From: Thermodesulfobacteriota bacterium
GTDB lineage: Bacteria; Desulfobacterota; Desulfarculia; JACQYL01
Assembly (NCBI GenBank): GCA_963675595.2
Contig: CAXXLZ010000002.1
Coordinates: 4,320,001-4,384,000 of the forward strand
Length of the DNA: 64,000 bases
Reading direction: 5' to 3'
The notes under the pieces are model-generated. The model ran no database searches. It saw only the letters and a program-made list of their open reading frames with translations, and was not told where the DNA came from. This document shows positions 8,162 to 28,323 of this stretch, one piece after another (positions within the stretch are counted from its first letter, which is position 1; each line of letters begins with the position of its first letter). The position numbers were made by a program, and so were the translations under genes.

Positions 8162-10984
8162 CTACAACACGGCCGCCCGTTCCCGGTACAGGTCCGGCCG
8201 CACGACCGATGCCATGGCCGCGGGATCGCAGGCGTCATCCAGGAATGCGTTCACTTGTTTCGCCACGGTGTCGGGTTCCAATACGGATTGCCGATAATTC
8301 ACATACAAGGCAGGTATGCCGAACGATGCGAGACGTCTCTTAAGATCGCTCATCTGCCTTCTCATGACCTCTTCCACGCGGCCGCAGGCGGTTTCCGAAT
8401 CCGGTTTCCCGGTGTACTCGATCATCCTGGATTGGGACCGGATGATTTCCTTTAGATCTCTTTCCATGACGATCACCCTGTAAGGGATGCGCGGGGCCAG
8501 GTAAGCCGGCAGCGGGGCAACGATCTTGACGGCCTTGCCTTTGGCGACCGACAGCCACGAATTGTCACGGGCAATGGTTTTGACCTTCTCCAGCTCGAAA
8601 TAGCCTTGGGGGTTGCCGGTATCGGGCCGTCTTTTCCCGTCCGTCAAGACGGGGAAACCGCCGGCTTCCAACATCTGCATCATCAAGGACGTCCCGGACC
8701 GGGGAAGCCCGGACACGACGAGCACGGTCTCTCCCAAGCCGGGTAGACTATCCGCCTGTTTTCCGCCGGCCGACGAGTCGGGAACGGTACTCCCATGTTC
8801 CGCGGCATACGCCGGGTCGATCGTTTCCGTGGAGTTCGGGTCGACGTCCCCGGATCGGAGTCGTTTCAGTCGCTCGGATGACTGTCGGGCCTCACGTTTG
8901 AAACCCTCCGCCTGTTCTTCATCCTTCAAACGGTGTTGGTGAATATAGGCCAAGCGTTGGTAGGCTTGGGGAAAGTTCGGATTCTGAGCCACCGCCATCC
9001 GGAGGGCCTGAACGGCTTCGGGAATGCGTCCCATGCGGTGGAGGCCCACTCCCAAAACGTAGTGGGCCATGGGGAGCTGGTACTCGAGACCGATGGCGGT
9101 GAGGGCATGCTCCACGGCTTCGCGGCTTCTCTTGCGTGCCAGGCAAACGCGGGCAAGCCCGAGCCGACCTTGAGCATTGTCCGGATCGAATTCGAGGACT
9201 CGTCGATATGATGCCTCCGCCTCGGTTGTCTTTCCCATGGCGAGAAGCGTCTCTCCCATGTGCAGGTAGAGGCCCACGGTTTCATGACCTCTTTTCTCGG
9301 CGCGTCTGAGATGTGCCATCGCTTCGCTCGGCCGGTCCTCCGCAGCCAGGAGGCTTCCCATGAGAAGGTCGAGGGATGCGAGATTGACGCCGGCTTTGGC
9401 TCTGAGTTTGGTGACTTTTTTCCGGTCTTCTTCCTCTAGTTCCTGAGGACTTTCGATTTTTCGAACTTCAAGAAAACTCTTTAGTTCTTTTTCGGCCTCC
9501 AAGGCGGTCTTCTTTTTGGACTCGATGACTTGTTCAAGGCGATTCCGGGCTTCGGAGATCCGGTCCAGTGATTTCAGGCAATGGACCAGGGCGATGCCGA
9601 AGCGGGACTCCTCGGACCATCGTTGGGACAAAGTTTCAAGGATAGGAACGGCCTGCACGTGGCGGCCGGCATCCATGTAGGAGCGTGCCAGGTTGTAATC
9701 GAGTTCTCTGACGCACTCGGCCACGGCGTCCCGCACGTTGTCGGGGGGCTTTTCGATATATCCGAGGTCGATGAGCCGATCCAACATCATTTGGTTTTCA
9801 ATGGGTTGGATCTGCCGGTCCTTCGGGTGCATCCCGCAGTCACCGGAAACCCGGTCCCAACTGGGGAGTCTTGAGACGGAAGGCGGCGTCTCAAATAGGC
9901 CGAGGAGCGGAACCCCGTCCATGTCGTCTCCCACGGGAAGCCCGAAAAGGGTGAGAATGGTGGGGCAGATATCCAGGAGGCCCGCTCCGTGAATAATCTC
10001 GTCTTTCCTGATGCCGGGGCCCTTGATCGCAAGAATGCCGTAATGGCGATGTTGGACCGCCGGCCCGGCGGGCTCCATGGGAATCCGTCTAGGGCGTCGG
10101 TGGTCGCAGTGGAACCCGTGGTCTGAAATCAGGATCACGGTGGTTTCCTCACCGGCTTCGGCCAGGAGTCTGCCCAGCATCATATCGTGGTAGATGTAGC
10201 CGCTTCGGACCACCTGATTGTACAGTTCGTAGTCGGATTTCAACACCCAGTCAGGCCGGGGCGGGTGGTATTGCATGAAGGCGTGGGAAAAATGGTCGAT
10301 GGCGTCGAAATAGACGGCCGTGAAATCCCAGGGCTCATGATGCATGAGCGCAACCGTGGCTCTATGGATGGTAGTACAGTCGCAGAATATCCGGGCAATG
10401 GTTTCCAGGCGATGGTCCTTTTCCTGGTCGATCTTACCCGCCTCGGGTACAAAGGGGAGGATATGCTCCGCCGTCAGGTCTTGGGGATGCAGACGCAGGT
10501 CGGCAAGGTTCTTTTCGAGTCGTTTGGGGTGGACGGTGCCGGGCTGTAGAGGCCACGGCTGGTCGAGCGGCCGGTGCGCCCGCTGATAGTGGTTGGAAAC
10601 CATGGCCCCGTTGATGGGTTCCGCCGGGTGGGACGGCCACCAACACACCACGTTGCACTTCCTCCCATTCTGACTCAGGATGTTCCAGACGGCCTTGGTC
10701 TTTCTCGAAAGGGAGGTGACCGGCCGGATTCCCCCGCCGCCGGGCATGGGCTCGGTAAATCCATAGACGCCATGCTTCCACGGGCGTTTTCCGGTGGCGA
10801 TGGAGGTCCACAGCATGGGGGACAATTCCGGGTAAAGAGTTGCCAAGTTACCCATGACTCCCGCTGTGACGAGGGAATCAAGGTGCGGCATCCTGCCTTC
10901 GTCCATCAAGGGATTGATGATATTCCAATCGGCGGCGTCCCAGCCGATGAGAAGGACTCTTTTCGAGGAAGGGGGTGAGGTCAT
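8162..10984 (-). CDS. Alkaline phosphatase-superfamily (nucleotide pyrophosphatase/phosphodiesterase) + TPR + sulfotransferase fusion
   Basis: N-terminal LIGWDAAD, LSPMLWTSIATG, DHFSH, ISDHG. Central TPRs. C-terminal SGLPRSGTS (5'-PAPS loop) and VIVMERD..EIIRSQ (3'-PAPS motif). Confidence 0.85.
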   Translation of the reverse strand: MTSPPSSKRVLLIGWDAADWNIINPLMDEGRMPHLDSLVTAGVMGNLATLYPELSPMLWTSIATGKRPWKHGVYGFTEPMPGGGGIRPVTSLSRKTKAVWNILSQNGRKCNVVCWWPSHPAEPINGAMVSNHYQRAHRPLDQPWPLQPGTVHPKRLEKNLADLRLHPQDLTAEHILPFVPEAGKIDQEKDHRLETIARIFCDCTTIHRATVALMHHEPWDFTAVYFDAIDHFSHAFMQYHPPRPDWVLKSDYELYNQVVRSGYIYHDMMLGRLLAEAGEETTVILISDHGFHCDHRRPRRIPMEPAGPAVQHRHYGILAIKGPGIRKDEIIHGAGLLDICPTILTLFGLPVGDDMDGVPLLGLFETPPSVSRLPSWDRVSGDCGMHPKDRQIQPIENQMMLDRLIDLGYIEKPPDNVRDAVAECVRELDYNLARSYMDAGRHVQAVPILETLSQRWSEESRFGIALVHCLKSLDRISEARNRLEQVIESKKKTALEAEKELKSFLEVRKIESPQELEEEDRKKVTKLRAKAGVNLASLDLLMGSLLAAEDRPSEAMAHLRRAEKRGHETVGLYLHMGETLLAMGKTTEAEASYRRVLEFDPDNAQGRLGLARVCLARKRSREAVEHALTAIGLEYQLPMAHYVLGVGLHRMGRIPEAVQALRMAVAQNPNFPQAYQRLAYIHQHRLKDEEQAEGFKREARQSSERLKRLRSGDVDPNSTETIDPAYAAEHGSTVPDSSAGGKQADSLPGLGETVLVVSGLPRSGTSLMMQMLEAGGFPVLTDGKRRPDTGNPQGYFELEKVKTIARDNSWLSVAKGKAVKIVAPLPAYLAPRIPYRVIVMERDLKEIIRSQSRMIEYTGKPDSETACGRVEEVMRRQMSDLKRRLASFGIPALYVNYRQSVLEPDTVAKQVNAFLDDACDPAAMASVVRPDLYRERAAVL

Positions 10985-14696: not shown

Positions 14697-15186
14697 AATT
14701 TCCTCCCTGTTGTGTCGATGGATTGGTGGACTTAGGCAAAGCCCCAGGACTGTAACAGTATTGTGCCGCGCAGACAAGACCTGTGTCCGGGCTTTCGACA
14801 AAAAATCGGGAACAGGGGGTCGGCGGCGTGGAGATTGCGATCACCAAAGGGATTGGATTCGGAGAGGCCGTTGAGGCCGAGTGTCGAAAAAGGCTTCACT
14901 TTCTTGTTCATGTCAATCACGAGAACCGGTCTGTAGTGACTTTTTGGATGGCGAGTGAGGCTGAGGAGTCCTTGTAATCCCATGATACAACGGAAGAAGT
15001 CTCGAACAAAGAGGGAGTACGCTTGCATCTGGTCACTGTCGGTCAATTTGACATTAAGGCGCATGAGGCATTGGAGGATGCTGAACGGAGGGATTTGGAT
15101 GTGTGGGGGACAGGGGCCCCATGCGGAACATGGGAGAGGATATCCTGGAAGTCGGTTGTTACGGACTCCACCCGTGCGCGGTCATG

Positions 15187-15215
15187 AAAAGGCCGCGGGC
15201 AAACCCGCGGCCTTT
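15187..15215 (-). terminator. Intrinsic terminator after the PEP-CTERM gene
   Basis: aaaaggccgcggg-caaa-cccgcggccttt perfect stem flanked by A/T tracts. Confidence 0.75.
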
Positions 15216-15237
15216 GGTGCCCGGCATATGAGAAGAA

Positions 15238-16086
15238 TCAAGCTCTCTTCGCGCGCCTGCGGAAAACGATGCCCGCCATACCCACCAAACCCACACCCAA
15301 GAGGGCCAGGGTGCCGGGTTCGGGAACGGGTGCGCTGGAACCAACTTCGAAATTGTCCCAAATGGTGTAGGGCTTAGATTCGCCCCAATCCGCTAAGGGA
15401 GCTTCAAACATAGTGTACAGTCCGATAGCCGTACCGAGATTGGTATAATCATTTCTGTAAGAGGTTCCTACCTGTTGCCCATCTACATAGAAGTGTATGA
15501 AGCCATCTGAAGAACTTAGCTGAAACATAAGGTTATGCCAATCATTCGTTCGTTCAACCTCCGTGTTTTGCCAACCTGGCGAATTTTCCCCCGCAGCCAC
15601 ATAGTAATAGTTGTCGCGCACATTAAATCGTCCTCCAAATTGGACGTCGGTCCAGTCCTCGCTGCCATCAATGTAGGGATTTACCCAATCAGGGACGGCA
15701 TAGAGTTGTCCCGCTCTTGCATTGGTCTCGGAGGACAGTTCATCATAGTACCAAACGCTGACGTACGGGTCGTATTGCTTTGCCAAGGCCGCGTGAGGAA
15801 GCGACTCAACCTCGACGGCCGCCCAAAACATCGTATCCTTCGGAGTGGAATCGGCGATCAATTGTAGCCCATAACTTCCGGCGTAGGCCGTACTCGTCTG
15901 CTGCATCATCTTTCCGACCGGAGCTTCTCCATGCCTGTAGTCGCTGTTCACCCAACCAGGAGCGTAGTCGCCAGTCCATGGAGTCTCAAAGTCATCGAAA
16001 AAGAGAACCACCGCCTGTGCCGGCGGTGCGGCCCAAGAGATGACAGCAGCCAGTACCAACAAACCGATGCATTTTCTCATATTCAT
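15238..16086 (-). CDS. PEP-CTERM surface protein, possible concanavalin/LamG-like beta sandwich
   Basis: Signal peptide (AQA). C-terminal VPEPGTLALLGVGLVGMAGIVFRRRAKRA. WHNL...IHFYVDGQQVG motif. Confidence 0.9.
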   Translation of the reverse strand: MNMRKCIGLLVLAAVISWAAPPAQAVVLFFDDFETPWTGDYAPGWVNSDYRHGEAPVGKMMQQTSTAYAGSYGLQLIADSTPKDTMFWAAVEVESLPHAALAKQYDPYVSVWYYDELSSETNARAGQLYAVPDWVNPYIDGSEDWTDVQFGGRFNVRDNYYYVAAGENSPGWQNTEVERTNDWHNLMFQLSSSDGFIHFYVDGQQVGTSYRNDYTNLGTAIGLYTMFEAPLADWGESKPYTIWDNFEVGSSAPVPEPGTLALLGVGLVGMAGIVFRRRAKRA

Positions 16087-16122
16087 GACATCCCCTTCCC
16101 ATGTTGTGTTTGGGAAGTGTTA

Positions 16123-16205
16123 AGCAATATTAATACCAAGATAAATAGCTAATAAAAGTAACAAGATATCGTTAAAGATGTGCTGAATTGGAAAGAAATC
16201 CGACA
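16123..16205 (-). promoter_or_regulatory. sigma54 promoter (16123-16138) plus upstream enhancer box (16189-16205)
   Basis: Minus strand TGGTATTAATATTGCT (GG-N10-GC), with TGTCGGATTTCTTTCCA about 52 bp upstream. Confidence 0.7.
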
Positions 16206-16587
16206 CCATATCCGACTTCGCTTCGCGTGAGGAGGCACCTATGAGGACAAAAATAGCGGGAACTCCTAATTGCGCGCTCCCTTCGGATCGTGCTACTTGT
16301 TGGATCGTGGTACATTCTCCCCGCCGGAATCAATGTGCCACCATTCCTCCGACCATGTGGGCGATTTCAACGCACCCCGCCGTCCCACATGGTCTTCTTT
16401 TTTTCAAGGTAATTCAGAAATCAGGCTCGGTAACCCCTTTGAACCGTGGGGAATTTCCACAAGGCAACCGGCTGGGAGGAAGGGTCGGCTCTTGCGACGA
16501 GAACGGAGAGCCCGCAGATGTCGGGGAACCTCAGAACGCAGCGAGGCAGTGCTGGAGAAGGGTGGGGAGAGAGTGAACGGAAGTCCT

Positions 16588-17322
16588 TCAGTCCGCGGTC
16601 AACAGGCTTAGAATGGGCACGAGGTTCAATTTGCCCACGGTCACGGTGGCTGTTTCCGTGTCGGTTCCGCAATCGGATTCGGCGGTGAGCGTGTAGGTCG
16701 TGCCGGCCGACGGCGATACCGCAACGGAACCCGACGAAGGGTCCACCACGCCGATGTCCGGATCGATTCGGGCGGAAGTCGCTCCCGAAAGACTCCACGA
16801 CAACACGGAGGATTGCGAAGAGGAAATTCGCGTGGGAGAAGCCGTGAACGATTGAATTACCGGGGCGGGGCAGTTCAAAGACAAAGGATTCGGCTGGGCG
16901 TCCAGAACGGCGGGATTTACCATGCCGTTGAGCTGGTATTCAGCCTCGGCGGTAATCTGCGCCGATCCCGTCGCGTCGCCGGGAACACGGGCGATGTAGG
17001 TCATCACCACCGGGCTCGAGGGCAAGCTCCCGGTCCAGATGACCTCCCCGAACAGTGCGTTGAACTCCGGATTCCCATCTCCGCCGACGCTTTCCACGTG
17101 CCATCCCTGGGGCAGATCGGGCCTCCACAACAGGGTGAGCAATGTTCCCGAATAGGTGAAAGTGTTGGTCACGGTAACCGTCCCACCCGGTTCGTAGGAG
17201 GCGGGTGCGGTGTGAACGGCGGTTTCCGTCTGGGCGAAGCACGTCGCAACCGGAAACGACATCGCCGCAAAAAGGAACAACACAAATAGAGCTGAAACAA
17301 AAGAGAATCCGTACCTGTTCAC
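16588..17322 (-). CDS. Secreted protein: one cohesin-like module, one Ig/PKD-like repeat, short hydrophobic tail
   Basis: GTG start with ggag RBS; signal peptide; shared module YEPGGTVTVTNTFTYSGTLLTLLWRPDLPQGW...GDGNPE...IWTGSLP; ends LVPILSLLTAD. Confidence 0.8.
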   Translation of the reverse strand: MNRYGFSFVSALFVLFLFAAMSFPVATCFAQTETAVHTAPASYEPGGTVTVTNTFTYSGTLLTLLWRPDLPQGWHVESVGGDGNPEFNALFGEVIWTGSLPSSPVVMTYIARVPGDATGSAQITAEAEYQLNGMVNPAVLDAQPNPLSLNCPAPVIQSFTASPTRISSSQSSVLSWSLSGATSARIDPDIGVVDPSSGSVAVSPSAGTTYTLTAESDCGTDTETATVTVGKLNLVPILSLLTAD

Positions 17323-17436
17323 AGGCTTCTCCTTGAATGCGTCGCTTCGGGACCTTCATTCTCCGGACGAGAATGCCGATCCGCGCCGGAAGCTCGAAAA
17401 TCTGGAGCCGTATCCAACATCATAACGTATCGCACT

Positions 17437-20400
17437 TTACGACTCACTCCCAACGAGCTTTTTTTCTTGTGCCGCGTCCGGAATCGCGAGAGTCCGGTTC
17501 ATTTTGAGTTGGTTCGAGGTTCCGTTGGAATCGGAGATTTCCACCAGATATTCCTCGCCTCCCAAGGGCGTGAGGGACAGCCGGCCGCTATGACCATCCG
17601 TTTGCAGTGTTCCTTCCACACCGTCGGACACGTCCCGGTCCAGGAAGGTTTTCCACTGGAGCAAGTCCGGGGTGAGAATCAACTGGACGGCGTCCGTGGT
17701 GTAGGTCTGAACGAATAGGAAGCTTCCGGATCCCCCTCTTTCTCTGTAGCAGCCGTCGACCCCGGTTCTTTGAAGACTTTCCGTGAATACCTTGCGGAGC
17801 GTGTAGTGTATGCTTCGGCCCCGTGGGTCCCGAACCACTGCGACCGCCCCGTCCTCATCGTTGAAGCGCATGGCGAGGGAGCCTCCGCCCGTCTCACTGG
17901 AAGCACTGATCCCGTCGGTCCAATCACTGTCCCGGTAGGCGGTCCAGGATGTGAGGTCGGGAGTCGCCAGAACCACGGCCGATCCATTGGTGTAGGTTTG
18001 TACGAAGAAGTTCATGACCGGATTCGAGGACTTGTAGATTCCGCCCACGGGCGTAAGAGAATCCCCGGGCATGCTTCTCAATGTCACCGGTCGGTCGGCG
18101 TGGCAAAGTCGATCATTGGATGAATCCGCCATGTGATAATGAGCTTCGCCGAACACCTGTTTGAGACCCGATGCATTTTCGGGGACGCGCACGGTGTATT
18201 GCAGGGTAACGGGGCTTTCGGGAACGGTCCCGGTCCAGACGATATCGCCTCGCACCATCTCGGGCGCACCGTCCCCGGACCAATGGATGATTTCCCAGCC
18301 TGCGGGCAAATTGGGTCGCCACAAGAGAGACAGCAACGCGCCGGAATATTCCAGCGTCACGTGGAAGGTCGTTTCCTCACCCGGAGTGTAAAAAGCTTCT
18401 CCCGTATGGCTTGCGGCGAATCTCTCGGATTCGTTGTTCGATGAGGCGAGCGCCGTCGTGGATCCGGCGTCGAACCCGGGGGCGAACCCGTCGGCTCCTT
18501 CCGCGTCGGGGTGATAACCGCCGGCGCGCCAGTAGGCGAGGGCCCGATTGATTTCCGTTCCATCGATGACCCAGGCGCTTTCCTGGAAGTCGGCTGAATT
18601 CCGTTCACAGGTTTGGTCGCCGGAACCCGGTGCGAATCCGTCGGACCCTAAAGGGTCACAGTGGTAACCGCCGGCGCGCCAGTAGGCCATGAGCCGGCTC
18701 GCTTCCGTACCGTCTATCATCCATAGCGGGTCCTCGTAGTCGCCGTCGTGCAGTTCCTCCAGCAGAAGGGAGGCGGGGTCGGCCCACAGAACTCCGGGAT
18801 GCGCCTGTCCATTCAAGGTGTATTCGAGCCGACCCGAAAGGGCCTGAGCCTCGTCCACGGCTTCCGGGACGTCCATTTCCAGGGTGACTTCCAAGGGATT
18901 GGGGGTGAGATCTCCTTCGAAAACCACCGCGGCGCCCTGGATGCCGGGTTGTCCGTCACCCACTGCGTCCACGAGAACCCAGCCTTCGGGCAGGGTGGGG
19001 GTGTAGGACAGGGATTCCAACGCCCGCTCCGCCGGGTAGGATACGGTGCATTTCACAAAAGCGGGGCCTGGAGACCGGTATCCCGAACCTTCCTGGGCGA
19101 CGTCGACCAAGGGGGGATTCACGGTGATGGTGACCGTGTCCGTCGAGGTGCCGCAGGAGTTGAGGGCGGAAAGCGTATAGGTGGTGTCGGCGTCCGGGTA
19201 CACAAGCGTTGTTCCCCCTTCGGAATTCACGTCGCCCACGCCGGAATCAATATCGGCGGAAGCCGCCCGGGAGAGGCTCCAGGAAAGCTCCACAGCTTCG
19301 CCCTCGTTGACTTCATTGGAATCCGCCGTGAAGGAAACCACCTCGGGAACGTTGTTCACGGTCAGCGTTACGTCGCTTGTGGTCGTGCCGCACTGGTTCA
19401 CGGCGCTCAGGGAGTAGACCGTGGTTTCCACAGGCTCGACTTGCGCGCTGCCGTCGAGGGACAAACCGGTTCCCACGTGAGTGATGTCCACACTGTTCGC
19501 GTAGGTGGTGGCCCAGGACAGTTCGGCGGATCCTCCCGTGCAGAGCTCGTTGGAGTCCGCGGTGAAGGAATCGATGACAGGCGCCGAATTCACGGTGACC
19601 GTCAACGTATCCGTATCGGAACCGCAAGTATTGGTCGCGGTGAGGGTATAAACGGTGGTGGCGCCCGGAGTTACCTGAGTCGATCCGTCCGCGTCGAGAC
19701 CGCCGGTTCCGTTAATGTCCACCTCATCCACACCGGTGGTGTTCCATGACAAGTCCACCGAAGACCCGGCGCAAATTTCCCCTGAGGTCGCCGTGAAGTT
19801 GTCCACGGAGGGCGCAAACAACACCGTCACCGTCACTTGGCCGGTGTCCGAACCGCATGGATTACTCGCGGTAAGCGTGTAGGTGGTTTCCGACGACGGA
19901 GAAACCTCGATCGTTCCGTCCGTGTCCAGCCCTGTGCCCACTCCCGAAATATCCACCTGGGTTGCATAGGAGGTGTTCCACGAAAGCAGGGCGGAGCCTC
20001 CGTTGCAGATTTGAGACGTATCTACGCTGAAGTCATCCACGGTGGGAGCGGCGCATCCCAGGGAAAGAGGGTTGGATTGTGCATACGCGGTTGCGGGATT
20101 CACCATTCCGAGAAAAGCGTAGACCACTTCTCCGGTGATTTCCCGCGAACCGGATTCGTCCTCCGGGACGCGTATGGTGTATTCCATCTGAATGGGACTT
20201 GCGGGCAGGGAGCCGGTCCAGAGGATTTCTCCGAAAACGGCATTGTATTCAGGGCTTCCGTCCCCCGTAACCTGTTCGATGGTCCAGCCTGTGGGAAGGG
20301 TCGGTTTCCACAGGAGGGACAACAAGGTGCCGTCGTAAGAGAAGGTGTTGGAAACGGTAATGGTTTGCCCCGGAACATAGCCCGAAGAGGTCGAATGCGT

Positions 20401-20499
20401 GACCGATTGGACGTCGGCTCCGGCGACGCCGGCAAGGCAAAACAGGAGAAATGCGAACAGGATCGCGGTCCGCCCGGAATGGAGAAATGTACTTTTCAT
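17437..20499 (-). CDS. Large secreted scaffold-like protein: 3 cohesin-like modules, 4 Ig/PKD-like repeats, duplicated dockerin-like motif, 2 C-terminal repeats
   Basis: Likely start MKSTF (20499) gives a signal peptide. Four repeats of P.vd.Fta...LSW...YTLtA.N.CG. Motif IDGTE..R..AYWRAGGYH....G.DGFAPG occurs twice. Module names are inferred. Confidence 0.8.
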   Translation of the reverse strand: MKSTFLHSGRTAILFAFLLFCLAGVAGADVQSVTHSTSSGYVPGQTITVSNTFSYDGTLLSLLWKPTLPTGWTIEQVTGDGSPEYNAVFGEILWTGSLPASPIQMEYTIRVPEDESGSREITGEVVYAFLGMVNPATAYAQSNPLSLGCAAPTVDDFSVDTSQICNGGSALLSWNTSYATQVDISGVGTGLDTDGTIEVSPSSETTYTLTASNPCGSDTGQVTVTVLFAPSVDNFTATSGEICAGSSVDLSWNTTGVDEVDINGTGGLDADGSTQVTPGATTVYTLTATNTCGSDTDTLTVTVNSAPVIDSFTADSNELCTGGSAELSWATTYANSVDITHVGTGLSLDGSAQVEPVETTVYSLSAVNQCGTTTSDVTLTVNNVPEVVSFTADSNEVNEGEAVELSWSLSRAASADIDSGVGDVNSEGGTTLVYPDADTTYTLSALNSCGTSTDTVTITVNPPLVDVAQEGSGYRSPGPAFVKCTVSYPAERALESLSYTPTLPEGWVLVDAVGDGQPGIQGAAVVFEGDLTPNPLEVTLEMDVPEAVDEAQALSGRLEYTLNGQAHPGVLWADPASLLLEELHDGDYEDPLWMIDGTEASRLMAYWRAGGYHCDPLGSDGFAPGSGDQTCERNSADFQESAWVIDGTEINRALAYWRAGGYHPDAEGADGFAPGFDAGSTTALASSNNESERFAASHTGEAFYTPGEETTFHVTLEYSGALLSLLWRPNLPAGWEIIHWSGDGAPEMVRGDIVWTGTVPESPVTLQYTVRVPENASGLKQVFGEAHYHMADSSNDRLCHADRPVTLRSMPGDSLTPVGGIYKSSNPVMNFFVQTYTNGSAVVLATPDLTSWTAYRDSDWTDGISASSETGGGSLAMRFNDEDGAVAVVRDPRGRSIHYTLRKVFTESLQRTGVDGCYRERGGSGSFLFVQTYTTDAVQLILTPDLLQWKTFLDRDVSDGVEGTLQTDGHSGRLSLTPLGGEEYLVEISDSNGTSNQLKMNRTLAIPDAAQEKKLVGSES

Positions 20500-20778
20500 G
20501 ACCCTACCTACCTGATCCCAATCTCGGTTAATCGCTTGCAGTAAATTGTAAACAAATGGACAAAAACAGCAGCCTTTGCTGAGCATATGCGGGGAATCCC
20601 TCTTCACGTCGTGTGGCTGCAGCGTATCATTTTCAGGATATCTCTCGAACCACCCGTGGCGTCGTGACGGAAAACGAACGACCGGACCATGCTCCGAACG
20701 AGTTTGAAGAACCGCTCCGATAGTGCATTGTGGTTAAGCCTCCCAGCCGCGGGGTGGGCCCCGCCCGCCCTGAACCGT

Positions 20779-23664
20779 CTATTCCTGCGCCGGAAAGACG
20801 ATCTCCAAGTCAAACTTCGTGGAACCGCCCGAGGGTTCGTAAATCGCGGCGGTATAGGAACCGCTTTGCTTTTCCGTCATGGTGAGGGCTCGGCCGGTTT
20901 CCGCCAGGTCTCCGGAAACGGAAATACCGTCCCGCCAATCGGGATCGAGAAATACGAGCCAGTTCATCAGATCGGGCGTGAGAATCGCCAATAGGGAACC
21001 CGTGGAATAGGTTTGTATATAAGTGTTCATACTCTGGTCGAGGGTCTTGTAAATGCCGTCGGGCGCGTCGTCGGACGCGGAGAAATCGAACACGCGGGAA
21101 AGCACCCGGGAATCCTCCGAACCGCCGGGAAAGGCGACGGTCGCCAAGAGGGTGACGTCGTCCGCGAAATCGAGGGAAAGTCGTCGGCCGAGTCCCGCCA
21201 TGTCGGGAACGTCTTCCACGCCGGCGCCCCATTCGGGTACCAGAAACGCTTGGAAGTTGACCAGGTCCGAGGTGAACAGAACGAGCATGCTGCCTTCGTC
21301 ATAGGTCTGAAGGAACACATTGACGGAATTGTCCAGGGTTTTGTAGATGCCGCTCGGATTGAACGGTTTCTCCGGAGCCACGAAGAGAGGATCGGGGTCC
21401 ACGAATTGAGCGGAAGGATTGGCCTCCCCCGGCAGATGAATTAGAACTTCGTTTCGGATTTCGCAGTCCCGTGTTTCGGTGGGAGGTACTTGGAGTACGT
21501 AGGACATGCTCACCGGTGAGGGCGGCAGGGAACCGGTCCAGAGGATGTCCCCACCGGAGAGCTCCGGATTTCCGTCACCCGAAACGCTTTGGATTTCCCA
21601 TCCTTCGGGCGGCGCCGGACGCCACATGAGGGACAGGAGATTGCCGGTGTAGGTGACTTCCGTATCTACCGTGACCGCTCCTCCCGCCTGATAGTAGTCG
21701 CCGTCCATGGAATGAGTCGCCTGAAAACCGTTCTCGGTCGTGCGAACTAGAGCGCCTCCCAGGGGTGCGCCCTCCAAACCGGGCGCATACCCGTCGGCTC
21801 CCGTTTCATCCGGGTGATACCCGCCGGCCCGCCAATAGGCGAGGACACGGCCGGTTTCCTGTCCGTCCAGAACCCAGTCCGGCTCCAGGTAATCGGCGCA
21901 GTGGAGATCGCAGGACGTATCTCCCGATCCGGCGGCGAACCCGTCCAGGCCCGAGGCGTCGCAATGGTAGCCGCCGGCGCGCCAATAGGACAGCACGCGG
22001 TTGACTTCGTTCCCGTCCATGGACCAGGCGGGAGCTTCCGTATCCGCGTCGTGCAGTTTGTAAACCGTAATGTAGTCGTACTCGATCACCGTGTCGGATC
22101 CGCCGGATCCTTCCACCGTGAGGGATACCGTATATGTGCCGGCCTCCTGGTAACCGTGCACGGGATTTGCCTCCGTGCTCGTGTCGCCGTCGCCGAAATC
22201 CCACGCGTAGGAGCTGATGTCACCGGTGGAGGTATTGGTGAAGGTCACTTGAAGAGGTGCGAGTCCGGAAGTGGCAGCAGCTGAAAAACTAGCTGAGGGT
22301 GAAGCGGCAGAGCAGGATTCCCGGAAGTTGGAAACAACGTAAGCGGTGTTGTTGAGTGTCTTTCGATTATCTGCGGCGTTAATTTCTCCCTCAGGCACTC
22401 CAAGAGGAGAACCTTCATATAGCAAGTTCGGATTTGACCAATAGGGTAAGCGTGTACAAGAAATACCTTGGTTGGCGCACTCAGTGTTGTAGGCCATAAT
22501 TGTGCGCCATTGCTGAGAGGCGTTTACGTACCCATGATTATACGTGTAGGGGCTGTTAGTCGTATCGTCTACATACCAGTCATGACGTGGCCCCATGGTG
22601 TGCCCGAGTTCATGAGAGAACGAAAGATTCCCAACTGCACATTCATCGGCAACAACAGACAATGCGTAAGGAGCCAAGGCAGTCAGGACAATCCACATTT
22701 GATAAGACATCCCACAAGAGTTGCCTCCATCATCCACAATAAGGACAATGTTATCGGCACAATATTCATCGCGCAAGCTGTGAACATCGTCCATGTAGCC
22801 GTCATCCTTCCGATAAAGGCGATACAGATCAGTATTAAGATCACCGGTCTCCGTATATGACACTTCGGCAGTATGGACTAAATTGATCCTTTGTGAGACT
22901 CCGCTGTTTGCATAAGTTGTGTTGGTCTGTTCAACTGCCAAGTCAATCAAGTTGAGGATGCCGCTCGCACCGCCACGGGCATCGCGAGCCGTGGGAGTAT
23001 AAACAACCAAAACATCGATGACCGAGCCGTCGTCGGCCATGGGTGCGGCTATGAAAGAAGGCGTGAGATCAAGACTCATCGTCTCGTCGGAAATAGGAGA
23101 AGGCTCGGACTCAGAGGGCAATTCCTCTTGGTTGACTTCCTTGATTACATGGATGCCTTCGCCTGCATAACTTATCGTGACTATGCAGGAACCCTGGGTA
23201 ACGATGCCTTCAAGAACACCATGCCGATAAGCCATGACCACACTACCGCCCCCGGAGTCTGCTGAGCTTCCGGAGAGAACAAGGGCTCCGGTCGAGGTCT
23301 TGCCGACTTTGTTGATCTTATACTCTTGTTGTTGACCTTCAAATAAGTTCAGCAGGATGGATCTGGGGAAGGAAACAGGACGTCTTTCAGAACCTCCGAT
23401 CTTTTCAAGAATGGAATCATCTATGCTCACGAAACGACGTCGTAAGACAGAGGGGTCCTGAGCCTCCTGAGCCACAAAAGAGTTGGGTTCGGCGGAAATG
23501 AATAGGGGTTTTGCCGAAAAGCTTGGAACCGTGGGGGTCTCCCAAGACGTGGCGGTTCGGGGAGAGCCGAACGATGCGGCCATTAGGCACGCCAAGGAAA
23601 TGCGCAGCGCGGTGAGGAACCCTATTTTCTGGAGTGAATATCCTGCCATCGCTTGTTTGATCAA
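20779..23664 (-). CDS. Secreted M12B/reprolysin-like zinc metallopeptidase with PKD, dockerin-like, cohesin-like and C-terminal repeats
   Basis: HELGHTMGPRHD (HExxHxxGxxH), Met-turn RTIMAY, IDVLVVYT. PKD motif YAWDFGDG...NPVHGY. Same YWRAGGYH pair and LMWRP module as the neighbours. Start is TTG 23664 or ATG 23649. Confidence 0.88.
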   Translation of the reverse strand: MIKQAMAGYSLQKIGFLTALRISLACLMAASFGSPRTATSWETPTVPSFSAKPLFISAEPNSFVAQEAQDPSVLRRRFVSIDDSILEKIGGSERRPVSFPRSILLNLFEGQQQEYKINKVGKTSTGALVLSGSSADSGGGSVVMAYRHGVLEGIVTQGSCIVTISYAGEGIHVIKEVNQEELPSESEPSPISDETMSLDLTPSFIAAPMADDGSVIDVLVVYTPTARDARGGASGILNLIDLAVEQTNTTYANSGVSQRINLVHTAEVSYTETGDLNTDLYRLYRKDDGYMDDVHSLRDEYCADNIVLIVDDGGNSCGMSYQMWIVLTALAPYALSVVADECAVGNLSFSHELGHTMGPRHDWYVDDTTNSPYTYNHGYVNASQQWRTIMAYNTECANQGISCTRLPYWSNPNLLYEGSPLGVPEGEINAADNRKTLNNTAYVVSNFRESCSAASPSASFSAAATSGLAPLQVTFTNTSTGDISSYAWDFGDGDTSTEANPVHGYQEAGTYTVSLTVEGSGGSDTVIEYDYITVYKLHDADTEAPAWSMDGNEVNRVLSYWRAGGYHCDASGLDGFAAGSGDTSCDLHCADYLEPDWVLDGQETGRVLAYWRAGGYHPDETGADGYAPGLEGAPLGGALVRTTENGFQATHSMDGDYYQAGGAVTVDTEVTYTGNLLSLMWRPAPPEGWEIQSVSGDGNPELSGGDILWTGSLPPSPVSMSYVLQVPPTETRDCEIRNEVLIHLPGEANPSAQFVDPDPLFVAPEKPFNPSGIYKTLDNSVNVFLQTYDEGSMLVLFTSDLVNFQAFLVPEWGAGVEDVPDMAGLGRRLSLDFADDVTLLATVAFPGGSEDSRVLSRVFDFSASDDAPDGIYKTLDQSMNTYIQTYSTGSLLAILTPDLMNWLVFLDPDWRDGISVSGDLAETGRALTMTEKQSGSYTAAIYEPSGGSTKFDLEIVFPAQE

Positions 23665-23701
23665 AGGAAGAGTTTATAATACATTGCGTGTATTACCATG
23701 T

Positions 23702-23730
23702 AATATAGTCGTGCGGTTTGAAGATGTCAA
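23702..23730 (-). promoter_or_regulatory. sigma70-type promoter for the protease/scaffold cluster
   Basis: Minus strand TTGACA-N17-TATATT about 40 bp upstream of the start. Confidence 0.65.
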
Positions 23731-23920
23731 GCGGAAGAGGTGCGAGGATGGGCGGCAGTGAATAATTTGATTCGCCGGGCCAAGGAGCCGAAGTGTTTCC
23801 AAGCGAACAGGTATTGCCGGCCGGGGATTCCTGAAGATGAAAAAGGGCGGGAATGAACGGCTTGCGGCCATCATTCCCCGCCCCTCTTAATTGTTGTCTT
23901 TGTCTCGATTGCGCGCCGGC

Positions 23921-24661
23921 CTAACCGTTCTTTCTTTTTCTCGCGTATCGGAAGGAAGCCAATCCGACAAGACCCACACCAATGAGCAGCACGGTGGAGG
24001 GTTCGGGGACCGGCTGGTCAGGAAAGCCGTCGGGGAGCTCGAAAATGTGCCCTTGGTTCTCCTCGTCGATGAAGAGTGCGAATGCGGCGTATTTCTCCGG
24101 TGCAGTACCCGTATAGTTTGATAGAGCCTCAAGGTAGGTATTCGCCTGGGCAACAACATCCGACGATCCGTTGATCATGAAGTAGTCACTACCTGACCCG
24201 GCTCCTGCGTTATCCGGAGACGAATCATAAATTACTTCCCAAATGGCTGCCTGTAAAGCGGCGGCTTCGGTGCCCGTATCGGCGTTGTCTATAAACAGGT
24301 TCATGAGAAACGCAGCTTTTTTCAGCTCATCCGGCGAGCTGTCGTCAATGTAGGTAAGATCATCACTCCAGAATGGAGTACCGTCCACATAGGTGCCCAG
24401 GTCGATGCAGAAGGCTCTTACATCGTTGAAGACTTCAGTGTCGACGGTCAGATTCCAGCGCATGATTCCGGCCTGGACCGTGTATGGCATGTTTGATTTG
24501 ACCTTGCTGCCGTTGTCATAGGCTATGATATTGATGTTTGACGACGGCGAGACATTAACATAGTCGAACTGCACCATGATTGCTTGGGCATTGGCGCCGA
24601 CAAGCAATGTCATAAGTGCAACTGCGGAGATAAGAATTCCCGTCCATACGTTTTTTCGCAT
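23921..24661 (-). CDS. PEP-CTERM surface protein with thioester-domain-like motifs
   Basis: Start MRKNVW after a ggagg RBS; signal peptide AQA; AFCIDL and ALQAAIWE motifs; VPEPSTVLLIGVGLVGLASFRYARKRK. Confidence 0.9.
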   Translation of the reverse strand: MRKNVWTGILISAVALMTLLVGANAQAIMVQFDYVNVSPSSNINIIAYDNGSKVKSNMPYTVQAGIMRWNLTVDTEVFNDVRAFCIDLGTYVDGTPFWSDDLTYIDDSSPDELKKAAFLMNLFIDNADTGTEAAALQAAIWEVIYDSSPDNAGAGSGSDYFMINGSSDVVAQANTYLEALSNYTGTAPEKYAAFALFIDEENQGHIFELPDGFPDQPVPEPSTVLLIGVGLVGLASFRYARKRKNG

Positions 24662-24706
24662 TTTACAGCCTCCCCTTAACGCGGTGGTGGTTTTTCCGAG
24701 AAGAGA

Positions 24707-24800
24707 AGCAAATGCCATGCCAAATAAAAAGATAGTGTAATATTGATTGGTTAAGGGGTATCGGGTTGTGAGGTGCACGGTGTTGTAGCCAATACCGACA
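24707..24800 (-). promoter_or_regulatory. sigma54 promoter (24707-24722) plus enhancer box (24784-24800)
   Basis: Minus strand TGGCATGGCATTTGCT, with TGTCGGTATTGGCTACA (TGT-N11-ACA) about 63 bp upstream. Confidence 0.78.
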
Positions 24801-25581
24801 CCTGAAATCTCTCGCATGGAGGGAATGATAATTCTCACAATACAGACATAATGCATGGTTATATTATAAATACATTTATGGATTGTTTCCGGCGTAAAGA
24901 AAACCGACAAGGGGAGCAGAGAGCGTGTCTAACCCATTGCTGTCCCACAAAATAAAGAAGGATAATCAATAAGAAACGGCTCTGGAAGCCCCATGTGTTA
25001 TAATGGTTGTGCGAAAAAGCACTAACAAAACAAGGGGATCCGAGCCATGGCACATCGTAACACAATCCTAAGTCAAGTAGTTGCATTTCTTCCGAGACAT
25101 GAATTCGATAGTTTTGCCAAGGTGCATCATGTTGGACGCCGTTTTCGAAGTTTCAACCGATGGTTTCAATTTATGGCGCTGATCATCGCTCAGCTTTCCG
25201 GGCGGGTTAGCCTGAGGGACTTGGTGGACAACATCGGCGCCCGGGCGCAAAGACTGTATCATCTGGGTATGCGGAGCCTTTCGCGATCGAATCTTGCGCG
25301 AACCAACGACAAACAACCGGCAGACCTCTACCGACTCCTGTTCGAGAGGCTCCTTACGAGATGTCGCAATTCAGCTCCGGGAAACCGATTCAAGTTCAGA
25401 GCCAAGCTCTATCTGCTGGACGCCACGATGATTGAACTCTGCTTGTCCGTCTTTCCGTGGGCTCGATATACCCGAAGCAAGGGGGCGGTGAAGATGCACA
25501 TGGGCCTGGACGCCGACGGCTACCTTCCCTCCTTTTTGTCGGTGACGGACGGCAAAGGACATGAAATCCAGTGGGCCAGGT

Positions 25582-26879
25582 TGGAATGCCCCCCGATAAT
25601 TGGTCCATGTATAATGAGAGTCTGAATGCCCAAAGAACGGAAGGAGACTTTTTGCATGGCCAAGAGAAAGAGACACAGCGCGGAGCAAATCATCCGGAAA
25701 CTTGAAGACGCGGACCGTCGTCTGACGGCAGGGCAGACGATAGCGCAGGTTTGCCAATCGCTGGAGGTGAGCGAGGCGACGTACCACCGGTGGCGAAACC
25801 AGTATGGGGGGATGAAGGCTGAGGAGGCCAAACGGCTAAAAGAACTGGAAAAGGAAAATGCACGCTTAAAAAAGCTGGTCGCCGATCTGATGTTGGACAA
25901 GGCAATGCTGAAGGATCTTGCGGAGGGAAACTTCTAAGCCCGGCGCGTCGTAGGAAAGCGGTTGATTATGTTCGAAGTGAACATGCCGCTTCAGAGCGTC
26001 GGGCCTGCCGCGTAGCCGGTCAACACCGATCCACCCAACGTTATGAGCCGAAGGAACGGGACGATGAGGTGGAACTGATCAAGGCTCTTCACCGGTTGGT
26101 TGGAGAACATCCCCGTTTTGGATGCCGTAGGATCACTCGGCTGCTGCGTGATGCGGGGTGGGCGGTAAACTACAAGCGAATTCATAGACTTTGGAAAGAG
26201 GAAGGATTCAAGGTACCTCGAAAAGCCAAGAAGAAACGCTTCCTGGGAGTTGATGCCAATGCGTGCAACAAGCGTAAGGCGGCTTTTGCAAATGATGTCT
26301 GGACGTTGGATTTCATTCATGACCGCTTGGTCGACGGCCGTCAGTTCAAGTGCTTGGCCATTGTCGACGAGTTTACTCGGGAAAACCTGGCCCTGAGGAT
26401 CAACCGCTCCATTACGGGTGAAGACGTTTTGAACGAGCTGAGCCGATTGATGGGCGAGCGGGGAGTTCCAACGGGCATTCGATCGGATAACGGTCCCGAA
26501 TTTATAGCCCAAAAGGTGAGAAACTGGCTGAAAGACCTGGGAGTGGGAACCCTTTTCGTCGAGCCGGGAGCCCCTTGGCAGAACGGGTACGTGGAAAGTT
26601 TCAACAGCCGTTTTCGGGATGAATTCTTGAACATGGAAATTTTCAACAACATCAAGGAAGCGCAGACTCTGGCCGCCAAATGGCGGAAAGCCTATAACGA
26701 GGAAAGACCGCACAGTGCATTGAATTACATGACCCCGGCCCAGTTCGCGGCGAGCCCTTGGGGCCTCGACTCCGCCTCGCTCAGCTCGGCTTCGCCGAGG
26801 CCCCAAGGGCCGGGGATGGAAAACCGCGAGTCATGATAAAACTCTCATAACTCCTGGACCAAAAACTGGGGGCTTGACA
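25582..26879 (+). mobile_element. IS3-family insertion sequence (1298 bp)
   Basis: TG...CA ends; imperfect IRs tggaatgccccccgataattggtcca / tggaccaaaaactgggggcttgaca; 4-bp duplication aggt at 25578-25581 and 26880-26883. Confidence 0.93.
25656..26836 (+). CDS. IS3 transposase OrfAB (orfA 25656-25937, orfB in the -1 frame)
   Basis: OrfA HTH plus zipper (LKELEKENARLKKLVADL). OrfB integrase core WTLDF, IRSDNGPEF, ESFNSRFRDE. Slippery G GGA AAC at 25925-25931. Confidence 0.88.
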
Positions 26880-28323
26880 AGGTCTCTGCAACTGCCCAAG
26901 GGCTCCTTCGTTGTGTTCGATCGCGGTTTCACCGACTATGACTGGTATGCCTCCCTCATGAAGAACGGTGTGTTCTTCGTGACCAGACTCAAGAGCAACG
27001 CCAAAATCCGGGTCGGCCGTAAGCGCAGTGGTCGCAAAGCCGAGGGGATCAAAAGCGATCGCGAGATTTACCTCGGCGGCCTGACCGAACCACTTCGTCT
27101 GGTGGAATATAGCGATCGGAAGACCGGCATGGAATATCGGTTGCTCACCAACGCCTTCCATCTCAAGGCCAAAACCTTGGCCGACCTGTACAAGGAACGG
27201 TGGCAAATCGAACTCTTCTTCAAATGGATCAAGCAGAATCTCAAAGTGAAGACCTTCTTGGGAACTTCTCTTAATGCCGTCCTGACTCAGTTGTGGGTCG
27301 CGATGATCGTTTATCTCCTCCTTGCCTTTCTCAAATTCAAAGCCAAACTGACCCAAACCCTCGGGGCCATCCTCCGGCTCCTACAGCTGAATCTCTTCTC
27401 ATTACGGGATATTATGTCTCTCTTCGAACCTACAAACTCTCAACCCATTGATAATAAACAACTATCTCTCTGGTAATCTTTATGGGACAGCAATGTGTCT
27501 AACCTAAGGTTAGTGTTGAATATGGCATGGATATGGTTATGGCAAGTATGAGTAAAAGAGTATAAATACGGTATTGAAAACTTATTTGATGAAGAGTGGA
27601 ATGGGCGAAGAAATATTTAGAAGTAAATTGGCTATATTAAGTTAACGAACCAAATGAAGTAAATAAAATTTGGACAATTTAGTAAATTAGAGGTAAATAG
27701 TAAGATGTATTAATGATAAGTAGATTATGTTATTATTAGTATTTAGAAAAGAATAAAAAACATTATATCATGATAATAAAGATAATGCAATTTCGGGGCG
27801 CTTGGAATTTGCGGTAATTTTTGAAAAGGCTTAATTGTGGATCTGATAGTTTATATGGAAATTGGCTGCGGATCTATGGTTTGATGGAATTGGATAGTCT
27901 TCAATTCCAATGTGGTTTGAGGTAAATCGCTTGGTAAATGCGTTAGGCGTTGCCATGGAGCTCCGTTCCGATAGATGCGTGTTATCTGTGAATTGTATAT
28001 GGGTTGTTTTCAAAATGGCGAAGTCGAGGCGGTCTTGGTCGAAAGGATGTCGATTACTCACCTTTTGATCTGTTTCTACGAGTCGATCTTCAGATGCAGG
28101 GCCAGGAAGTTGCAGAAGGCTTGACTTTGGACGCGTCGGAGCCTTTGGTGGAGCCGAGGCCTGAGTTCCAGGGCCGATTTTGGTCCCGGAAGGTTCTTTC
28201 CGCTTGCCACAGGCGTTTGTTGGTGACAACAGCCGACTTTGTCGGCGGGAGAGTCGGTACCGGTGAGGAGAACATATTTGCCGTGGAATCGAGTGGAAGC
28301 GTTCCGCTGATCCGGTCGACCTT

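Follow-up and report, generated by a model that had tools for sequence, protein, structure and literature searches.

The DNA analysed here, a 64,000-nucleotide stretch of a Thermodesulfobacteriota bacterium genome (contig CAXXLZ010000002.1, positions 4,320,001 to 4,384,000; hereafter the window), carries three genes on the minus strand at window positions 16588-23664, whose products we name P961, P1056 and P244 after their lengths in amino acids (aa). Our best explanation, to which as a whole we give a probability of about 0.55, is that two modules of these proteins, A and a tandem module B (BB), are a divergent cohesin-like socket and a dockerin-like plug, BB having two equivalent A-binding sites, one per repeat. 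In an A-BB-A cassette, repeat 1 would be paired with the A ahead of it and repeat 2 with the A behind it. Cassettes whose first A has been lost, or has a decayed binding face, would have site 1 open to an A from a different secreted protein, as a rule the one encoded by the next gene. P961, whose site 1 has no A of its own, would dock on the free A of P244 or on A1 of P1056. P1056, with a decayed A2, would dock on P244. The resulting chain of protease, scaffold and cap would be attached to the cell surface through module C, the P244 tail or both. The same figure is the one we give to the assembly of the three proteins. The reading is based on architecture, predicted folds, covariation, conservation and gene-order statistics, from which we infer physical binding, the simultaneous occupation of both sites, contacts between chains, a dependence on metal and attachment to the surface.

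Shared modules of the three proteins

The genes are co-oriented, lie in the order P961, P1056, P244 between two PEP-CTERM genes, and each product opens with a hydrophobic, signal-like stretch. An earlier note on this DNA held that all three proteins share three modules, which stands for A, whilst B and C occur only in P961 and P1056. Its five copies of A (one in P244, three in P1056, one in P961), one of them divergent, agree with pairwise BLAST (E 1e-11 to 1e-30) and with profiles, the divergent one being the middle copy of P1056. The tandem duplication of B in both large proteins was likewise recovered, with boundaries refined to 22056-21763 and 18753-18460, as was the C-terminal duplication of module C in the same two proteins (CC). 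A fourth shared unit, absent from the earlier note, is a Ig-like repeat of ~78 aa, present four times in P1056 and once in P244.

P961 consists of a signal-like N-terminus, a prodomain, an M12B catalytic domain, PKD, BB, A and CC, without the A that usually sits before BB. The proposed reprolysin assignment is secure, as the M12B domain scores above the Pfam cut-offs (PF13688, 50.7 bits against a cut-off of 27), the HExxHxxGxxH zinc motif is intact and a Met lies downstream. P1056 is laid out as signal, A1, four Ig-like repeats, A2, BB, A3 and CC; it carries three A and had no catalytic match in the Pfam scan. Its likelier start is the ATG at 20499, which lies ahead of the hydrophobic signal core. 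Relatives of the same layout, all metagenomic, exist for P961 (P0017), P1056 (P0001) and P244 (P0165), the last keeping the P244 architecture plus a similar hydrophobic tail. The features of the three genes, with a binding-face score for each A (see below), are as follows.

20779..23664, minus strand: P961, secreted M12B (reprolysin-like) metalloprotease, 961 aa from a TTG start, 956 aa from the ATG at 23649
22309..23022, minus strand: M12B catalytic domain, HELGHTMGPRH at aa 351-361 (Pfam Reprolysin_5 3.5e-13, Reprolysin_4 1.7e-11)
22063..22299, minus strand: PKD domain of P961 (PF18911, 1.2e-18)
21763..22056, minus strand: BB of P961, dockerin-like tandem loop-helix-hairpin, site 1 without an A of its own
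21373..21726, minus strand: A of P961, post-B type, binding-face score 8/10
20782..21366, minus strand: CC of P961, tandem module C, an independent family
17437..20607, minus strand: P1056, secreted scaffold-like protein, 1056 aa from a GTG start
20050..20409, minus strand: A1 of P1056, free N-terminal A, binding-face score 9/10
19114..20049, minus strand: four Ig-like spacer repeats of P1056 of ~78 aa each, weak I-set match
18754..19107, minus strand: A2 of P1056, pre-B type, degenerate binding face, score 4/10
18460..18753, minus strand: BB of P1056, nearest folds dockerins
18064..18423, minus strand: A3 of P1056, post-B type, binding-face score 8/10, covaries with B repeat 2
17473..18057, minus strand: CC of P1056, tandem module C
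16588..17322, minus strand: P244, 244 aa, with signal, free A, one Ig-like unit and a short hydrophobic tail, candidate cap or anchor
16867-17223, minus strand: free A of P244, binding-face score 10/10
16630-16866, minus strand: Ig-like unit of P244
16591-16629, minus strand: short hydrophobic tail of P244

Covariation between A and BB

Mean-field direct coupling analysis (DCA) was run on 127 non-identical A-BB-A cassettes (numbering is P1056 residue minus 500), a shallow set in which lower-ranked pairs are mostly noise. The first pair, G204-N331, and the third, I186-V290, both join B repeat 2 to the following A (z 12.4 and 10.5), and A-to-A pairs peak at z 5.7. With Leu at position 290 the residue at 186 is Ala, and with Val it is a larger one (odds ratio 52); the same size rule joins position 136 of repeat 1 with position 62 of the preceding A (odds ratio 34), the crossed B-A pairs giving odds ratios of 4.6 and 1.6. 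On the tree G204-N331 holds, with 6.5 independent pairs going the same way and 0 the opposite (median p 0.016; control 0.7 vs 0.9). In a type I dockerin the residues that bind the cohesin lie at the end of the loop and in the helix; the B positions that covary with A are 183-186 and 204. The A positions lie on strands 3 and 6 and in loops 6-7 and 8-9, which in solved cohesins are the parts in contact with the dockerin (PMC5429695).

A contact of some kind between A and B is highly probable, and the simplest reading of the covariation is a two-fold clasp, in which each B repeat would hold the adjacent A. Since each BB repeat covaries with the A at its own side, most cassettes are probably capped from within, as their default state.

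Predicted folds and conservation

In an AlphaFold2 (AF2) model of A2-BB-A3 (pLDDT 93.7, pTM 0.86) the linker between B2 and A3 is disordered (residues 216-224 below 50), and the high pTM across this linker implies a fixed relative placement of the domains. A has nine strands in the model, counted by their order along the chain and not from sheet order in the coordinates. It superposes over the whole of the Clostridium perfringens cohesin 2vo8 (Z 12.4, root-mean-square deviation (rmsd) 2.9, 119 of 135 residues aligned), and scores Z about 10-10.5 against cellulosomal cohesins. Modelled alone (pLDDT 96), BB comprises ~98 aa in two repeats of ~50 aa with helices at 17-28 and 67-79; ten of its 15 top VIA rows, and 11 of 43 overall, are dockerin chains (best C. 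perfringens 2ozn_B, Z 3.4; Z at most 3.7), and the top three Foldseek rows are also dockerins (E 0.8-2.3). With the three-domain model as query, Foldseek gave multi-sandwich proteins alone, at high rmsd. Among the sequences of solved structures, profiles of the cassette, of BB and of A found nothing meaningful, with no match for BB in the PDB, and the beta-lactamase rows were rejected as short chance matches (E 0.02 or worse). In the ESM Atlas, BB-A reached dockerin and cohesin clusters at scores of only 0.76-0.78, which we treat purely as a lead.

The predicted binding face of A (strands 8-3-6-5), whose positions were assigned by strand order and alternation and not from coordinates, is more conserved than the other sheet in A that follow BB (0.61 vs 0.40) and in A of proteins without B, some of which are fragments (0.65 vs 0.41, n=67), and is kept less in A that precede BB (0.44 vs 0.35).

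A canonical dockerin has two 12-residue calcium loops with ligands at positions 1, 3, 5, 9 and 12, and depends on calcium to fold and to bind. The loops of BB keep the first Asp and the last Glu; across the family 333 of 387 are of the 13-residue kind seen in the window, with R/Q at position 3 and P at position 5, and 29 of 387 are of canonical length. A loop of canonical length is found in two distant relatives, P0036 and P0035, the latter from a Hydrogenedentes bacterium, and an atypical loop also exists in a true dockerin (PMC5429695). B is best read as a dockerin-like offshoot with uncertain calcium binding. A complex prediction with the BB-A of P961, the A of P244 and two calcium ions gave no answer (score 0.30, mark 0.32) and is counted neither way.

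Gene order and vacant sites

The gene-order set comprised 119 BB open reading frames (ORFs) at 113 loci in 90 clusters, nine of them with too little flank; five clusters of unjudged type (one yes, three no, one unknown) were left out of the counts. In the scorable clusters the next gene starts with A after BBA in 5/5, after ABBA in 16/58, after ABB, where rows may include frameshifts, in 5/7, and after BB alone in 0/6. The 13 downstream genes examined start with signal-like peptides, and three-gene chains, in which a BB gene is followed by an A..BB gene and then by an A gene, recur in Kiritimatiellia loci. At three loci in which B1 differs from B2 (L012, L048 and L049), the next gene's first A matches B1, not the chain's own post-B A. 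The binding face of the preceding A scores 3.0/10 when an A gene follows and 5.7 otherwise, a gap that is confounded by lineage since post-B scores also fall (5.1 vs 6.8). Taken by their sequence and order, the vacant-site cassettes suggest binding between proteins. The chaining of A and B proposed in the earlier note is thus upheld in part: a BB gene followed by an A-starting gene recurs in other phyla, but most sites look self-occupied.

At several loci (L022, L024, L032, L042, L049, L050, L157 and L158) the gene right after the BB gene encodes a secreted protein with three to five A, often N-terminal. Proteins of these L022-type loci are the closest to a true scaffoldin in this family.

Distribution of the cassette

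A search with the cassette as query returned 1,796 clusters at 50% identity (E 0.001), many via A or B alone. In genome contigs a single-protein scan found nothing and an alignment scan turned up 58 loci within named genomes, chiefly of Verrucomicrobiota, Lentisphaeria, Kiritimatiellia, Planctomycetota and Chromatiaceae, to which 55 metagenome loci are added. A-BB-A usually lies near the C-terminus, before a lineage-specific end domain. Among its cargoes (15 locus proteins scanned) are Ig arrays, propellers, beta-helices and a papain-like peptidase. Neither A nor BB was found in any of 150 relatives, so the pair is patchy in this lineage.

A and B co-occur across genomes, which the earlier note had set as a check of its reading; they also covary at interface positions of cohesin-dockerin type. 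In a Kiritimatiellia-class sample of 301 genomes, built around a genome picked for having A/B and with 14-16 candidates scored per genome, 22 had both, one had B only, five had A only (two weakly) and 273 had neither. Co-occurrence at this level is mostly explained by fusion in the same chain and we do not count it as proof of binding.

Our genome holds one further A/B protein, a 1462-codon ORF with the order A, A, BB, A, Ig, Ig (C2:781600-785988, minus strand), which is a possible further partner of the locus. It has propeller-like repeats before A and a hydrophobic then basic tail, and adjoins flagellar hook and rod genes.

Evidence against and alternative readings

Several results weigh against reading A and BB as socket and plug. 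A is equally near by structure to CnaA pilin domains, SpaD D2 (Z 12.8), BcpA (12.4) and CLIPPER/DUF11 (12.1), and as A ties between the cohesin and CnaA folds, fold alone is no decider. Cohesin was not among the nine Pfam families found for 79 A members (0/79 at E 1), and hhalign of A against 13 cohesin stretches was not significant (P 0.16). The Z of at most 3.7 for BB against dockerins lies within the range of common helix pairs, Dockerin_1 was absent from the best 25 of 34 Pfam families for 58 BB members, the BB copy of the window matched no Pfam family at E 10, and hhalign of BB against 40 dockerin stretches was not significant (P 0.049, 17 columns in register). All four loops in the window have 13 residues and no acidic residue at position 5. 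The earlier proposals, B as a divergent dockerin and A as its cohesin, are supported in part, B by its closest solved folds and A by its superposition over a whole cohesin, whereas the canonical paired calcium loops and a link by sequence fall away; by sequence, the A/BB family is outside the Pfam dockerin and cohesin families.

Similarly, for the pairing itself, 186-290 and 136-62 are not significant on the tree (about three pairs the same way, 0 opposite, p 0.25), covariation within a chain cannot separate cis from trans contacts, and the AF2 model uses the same covariation signal. The five BBA clusters are probably close kin, L044 breaks the size rule, L042 and L043 are unscorable, and the rule is loose in our own locus (V in B1 of P961 against L in A1; A in B1 of P1056 against I in P244). 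The decayed A2 may still block site 1 sterically.

The alternative that survives best, unlikely though we judge it, is that A-BB-A is purely an intramolecular clasp, the free A being partnerless duplicates and the three proteins not assembling; such a clasp could serve as a joint that is stiff or bears load, or could keep its two sides tied together after the B2-A linker is cut. In its favour, A-BB-A is the commonest architecture (the exact string in 81/163 proteins and 43/86 locus ORFs), the covariation is with the chain's own A copies, and no A gene lies downstream in 42 of the 58 ABBA clusters that could be scored. Moreover, 6 of the 22 genomes with both modules hold one A-BB-A and no extra A, as does G152, so that a hetero-partner is not needed, which counts against our preferred reading as well. 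Against a closed clasp, A in proteins without B keep their binding face, a multi-A gene follows BBA in every scorable cluster, and strong A matches occur in only 3/278 B-negative genomes.

Decidedly less probable is that the A-B contacts form between copies of the same protein by domain swapping, giving homo-oligomers or chains in which free-A proteins act as terminators or branch points. Covariation does not distinguish this from contacts in cis, the B2-A linker is variable and disordered, and there is a precedent in Ruminococcus bromii Amy4, which carries both modules and whose aggregation, presumably caused by the cohesin of one copy binding the dockerin of another, ends when the dockerin is removed (PMC12663171). 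The confident single-chain AF2 model speaks against it, and the pairing of each repeat with the A next to it agrees with a clasp closed inside a single chain. Least probable of all is that A is a generic CnaA/NEW3-like stalk co-travelling with an unrelated small metal-binding or structural module, without plug-socket binding: pilin CnaA domains are among the top structural rows of A, NPCBM_assoc is weakly matched by 25 of the 79 A members (E 1.2e-4 at best) and no cohesin or dockerin is among the Pfam families listed, but the first-strand Lys that bonds to an Asn of the penultimate strand in CnaA domains (bioRxiv 10.1101/2025.04.25.650565) is not conserved in A (highest column 22% of 424 copies, outside strand 1), surface conservation is one-sided, and the top covariation pairs join A and B.

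Returning to the preferred reading, in which BB offers two A-binding sites, its broadest form would make BB a bivalent hub that takes two A at once, with filling by the own chain or by a neighbour's product deciding between a self-capped and a chained state, and with ordered head-to-tail assemblies on the surface (protease, scaffold and cap at this locus) in the Planctomycetes-Verrucomicrobia-Chlamydiae (PVC) group, Chromatiaceae and this lineage; this we put forward tentatively, as a possibility with the odds leaning somewhat against it.

Module C and possible attachment

The earlier note observed that none of the three proteins has a PEP-CTERM signal, which we confirm, both flanking genes carrying one. 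Membership of module C in the A/B system is rejected, given the independent spread of this module through the genome. Module C (~95 aa, usually paired) occurs in 121 copies in 72 secreted-type ORFs genome-wide, in N-terminal, C-terminal and internal positions, and only P961 and P1056 among these ORFs carry A or B. Two genomes of the same family have 78 and 33 matches, A and B not being found there, and 58 more distant genomes have none. No family name was found for it, and the ESM Atlas gave nothing at 0.9 or above for CC. As module C sits after A, in the slot filled elsewhere by end domains particular to each lineage, it is by analogy a candidate surface-retention tag.

By a similar analogy P244 is a candidate anchor or cap. 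A motif like its tail forms no genome-wide family (one ORF by a strict pattern, six by a loose one, the latter mostly unrelated). Small proteins built of signal, canonical cohesin and P244-like tail do exist, both in this genome and in its two family members (L079, L126 and L128). In one relative, a small cohesin gene comes directly after a dockerin gene at four places. Our genome also carries two canonical cohesins and one canonical dockerin (C1:1106050-1106358, C1:1230563-1230850 and C2:1297829-1297978), one cohesin being in a small protein with a hydrophobic tail and the other in a 692-codon ORF ending in CC.

Pairs of a dockerin-ending gene and then a cohesin gene of ~190 aa with a lipoprotein-like N-terminus were seen on G099 contigs C42, C23, C16 and C3, and loosely C12; they lie at L115, L118, L121-L123, L125, L127, L129, L132 and L133.

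Surroundings of the locus

Contigs of a related strain (runs X4 and X6, from one sample) match P1056, P244 and, within P961, the BB-A-CC tail, and turn to unlike sequence at the start of PKD (window 22268). The protease region, 22348-24685, has no cover in the related strains' contigs. The divergence at 22268 gives a weak hint that the N-terminal cargo of P961 is possibly exchangeable. Upstream of the P961 gene there is one candidate promoter:

23702..23730, minus strand: candidate sigma-70-like promoter, TTGACA-17-TATATT, 11/12 consensus match

This site is the best of six within 15000-25500, where shuffles expect 5.4. Further upstream, at 25047-27476, one gene appears to be split by a second element (25626-26836); we take the gene to be transposase-like and the element to be IS3-like. 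An ORF near-identical to the transposase-like gene lies at C2:793407-794420. On the other side of the locus, window 7236-8018 presumably encodes a small secreted protein with an IPTL-CTERM-like tail, and the adjoining 8162-10984 what we assume to be a sulfatase/TPR/sulfotransferase-like fusion.

Comparison with known systems

The C. perfringens X82 pair (NagJ-NagH; PDB 2vo8, 2w1n, 2o4e, 2ozn) supplies both the best cohesin match of A and the best match of BB, and joins secreted hydrolases without a classical scaffoldin (PMC12997984). Our family differs in having no detectable sequence similarity to it, in the ~98-aa BB with a hairpin after each helix and 13-residue loops, and in carrying A and BB in one chain, where each BB repeat would pair with a separate A. 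With the type I cellulosomal cohesin-dockerin pair (PF00963/PF00404) it would have in common a nine-stranded sandwich, as modelled, the tandem loop-helix and, as the probable contact face, the 8-3-6-5 sheet with loops 6-7 and 8-9 (PMC5429695). A dockerin with the dual binding mode is symmetric and can bind its cohesin in two alternative orientations (PMC12270676), whereas the covariation here points to two A per BB; the Pfam and profile tests fail, and the cargoes are protease or adhesin-like domains, not cellulases.

The planctosome of freshwater Planctomycetes is a hypothetical anchor-adaptor-peptidase complex that includes M12B enzymes and is joined by cohesin-dockerin contacts (PMC6461901); its cohesins, dockerins and lamin-tail anchor are recognisable, whilst A and BB are unannotated. 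A complex predicted in silico for 'Ca. Stygibacter', a diderm anaerobe, combines dockerin-bearing peptidases with a multi-cohesin scaffold (PMC8542988); unlike ours it has canonical domains and a C-terminal attachment domain, with no self-capped cassette in the part of its description consulted. The catalytic region of P961 resembles that of Mep72 (NF052434; E 4.7e-30, and the zinc motif), but scores only 104.7 bits against a full-length cut-off of 645, the C-terminal half of P961 being PKD-BB-A-CC.

Implications

Cohesin- and dockerin-like modules are widespread outside cellulosomes, their role in Gram-negative bacteria being mostly proposed. In the dockerin-related literature covered (titles and abstract openings) we found no description of the A-BB-A cassette. 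What is new here is the family itself, together with a pairing specific to each repeat, which implies two sites, and a gene order that follows the vacancy of a site. The A-BB-A family is invisible to Pfam, and the reading proposed makes a precise prediction both of the vacant site and of the residues that pair. Should the two sites be able to work simultaneously, BB would have a binding mode without description in the literature covered; splitting of the gene would then turn a clasp within one molecule into an assembly of several proteins, and protein engineering would possibly gain a new orthogonal connector.

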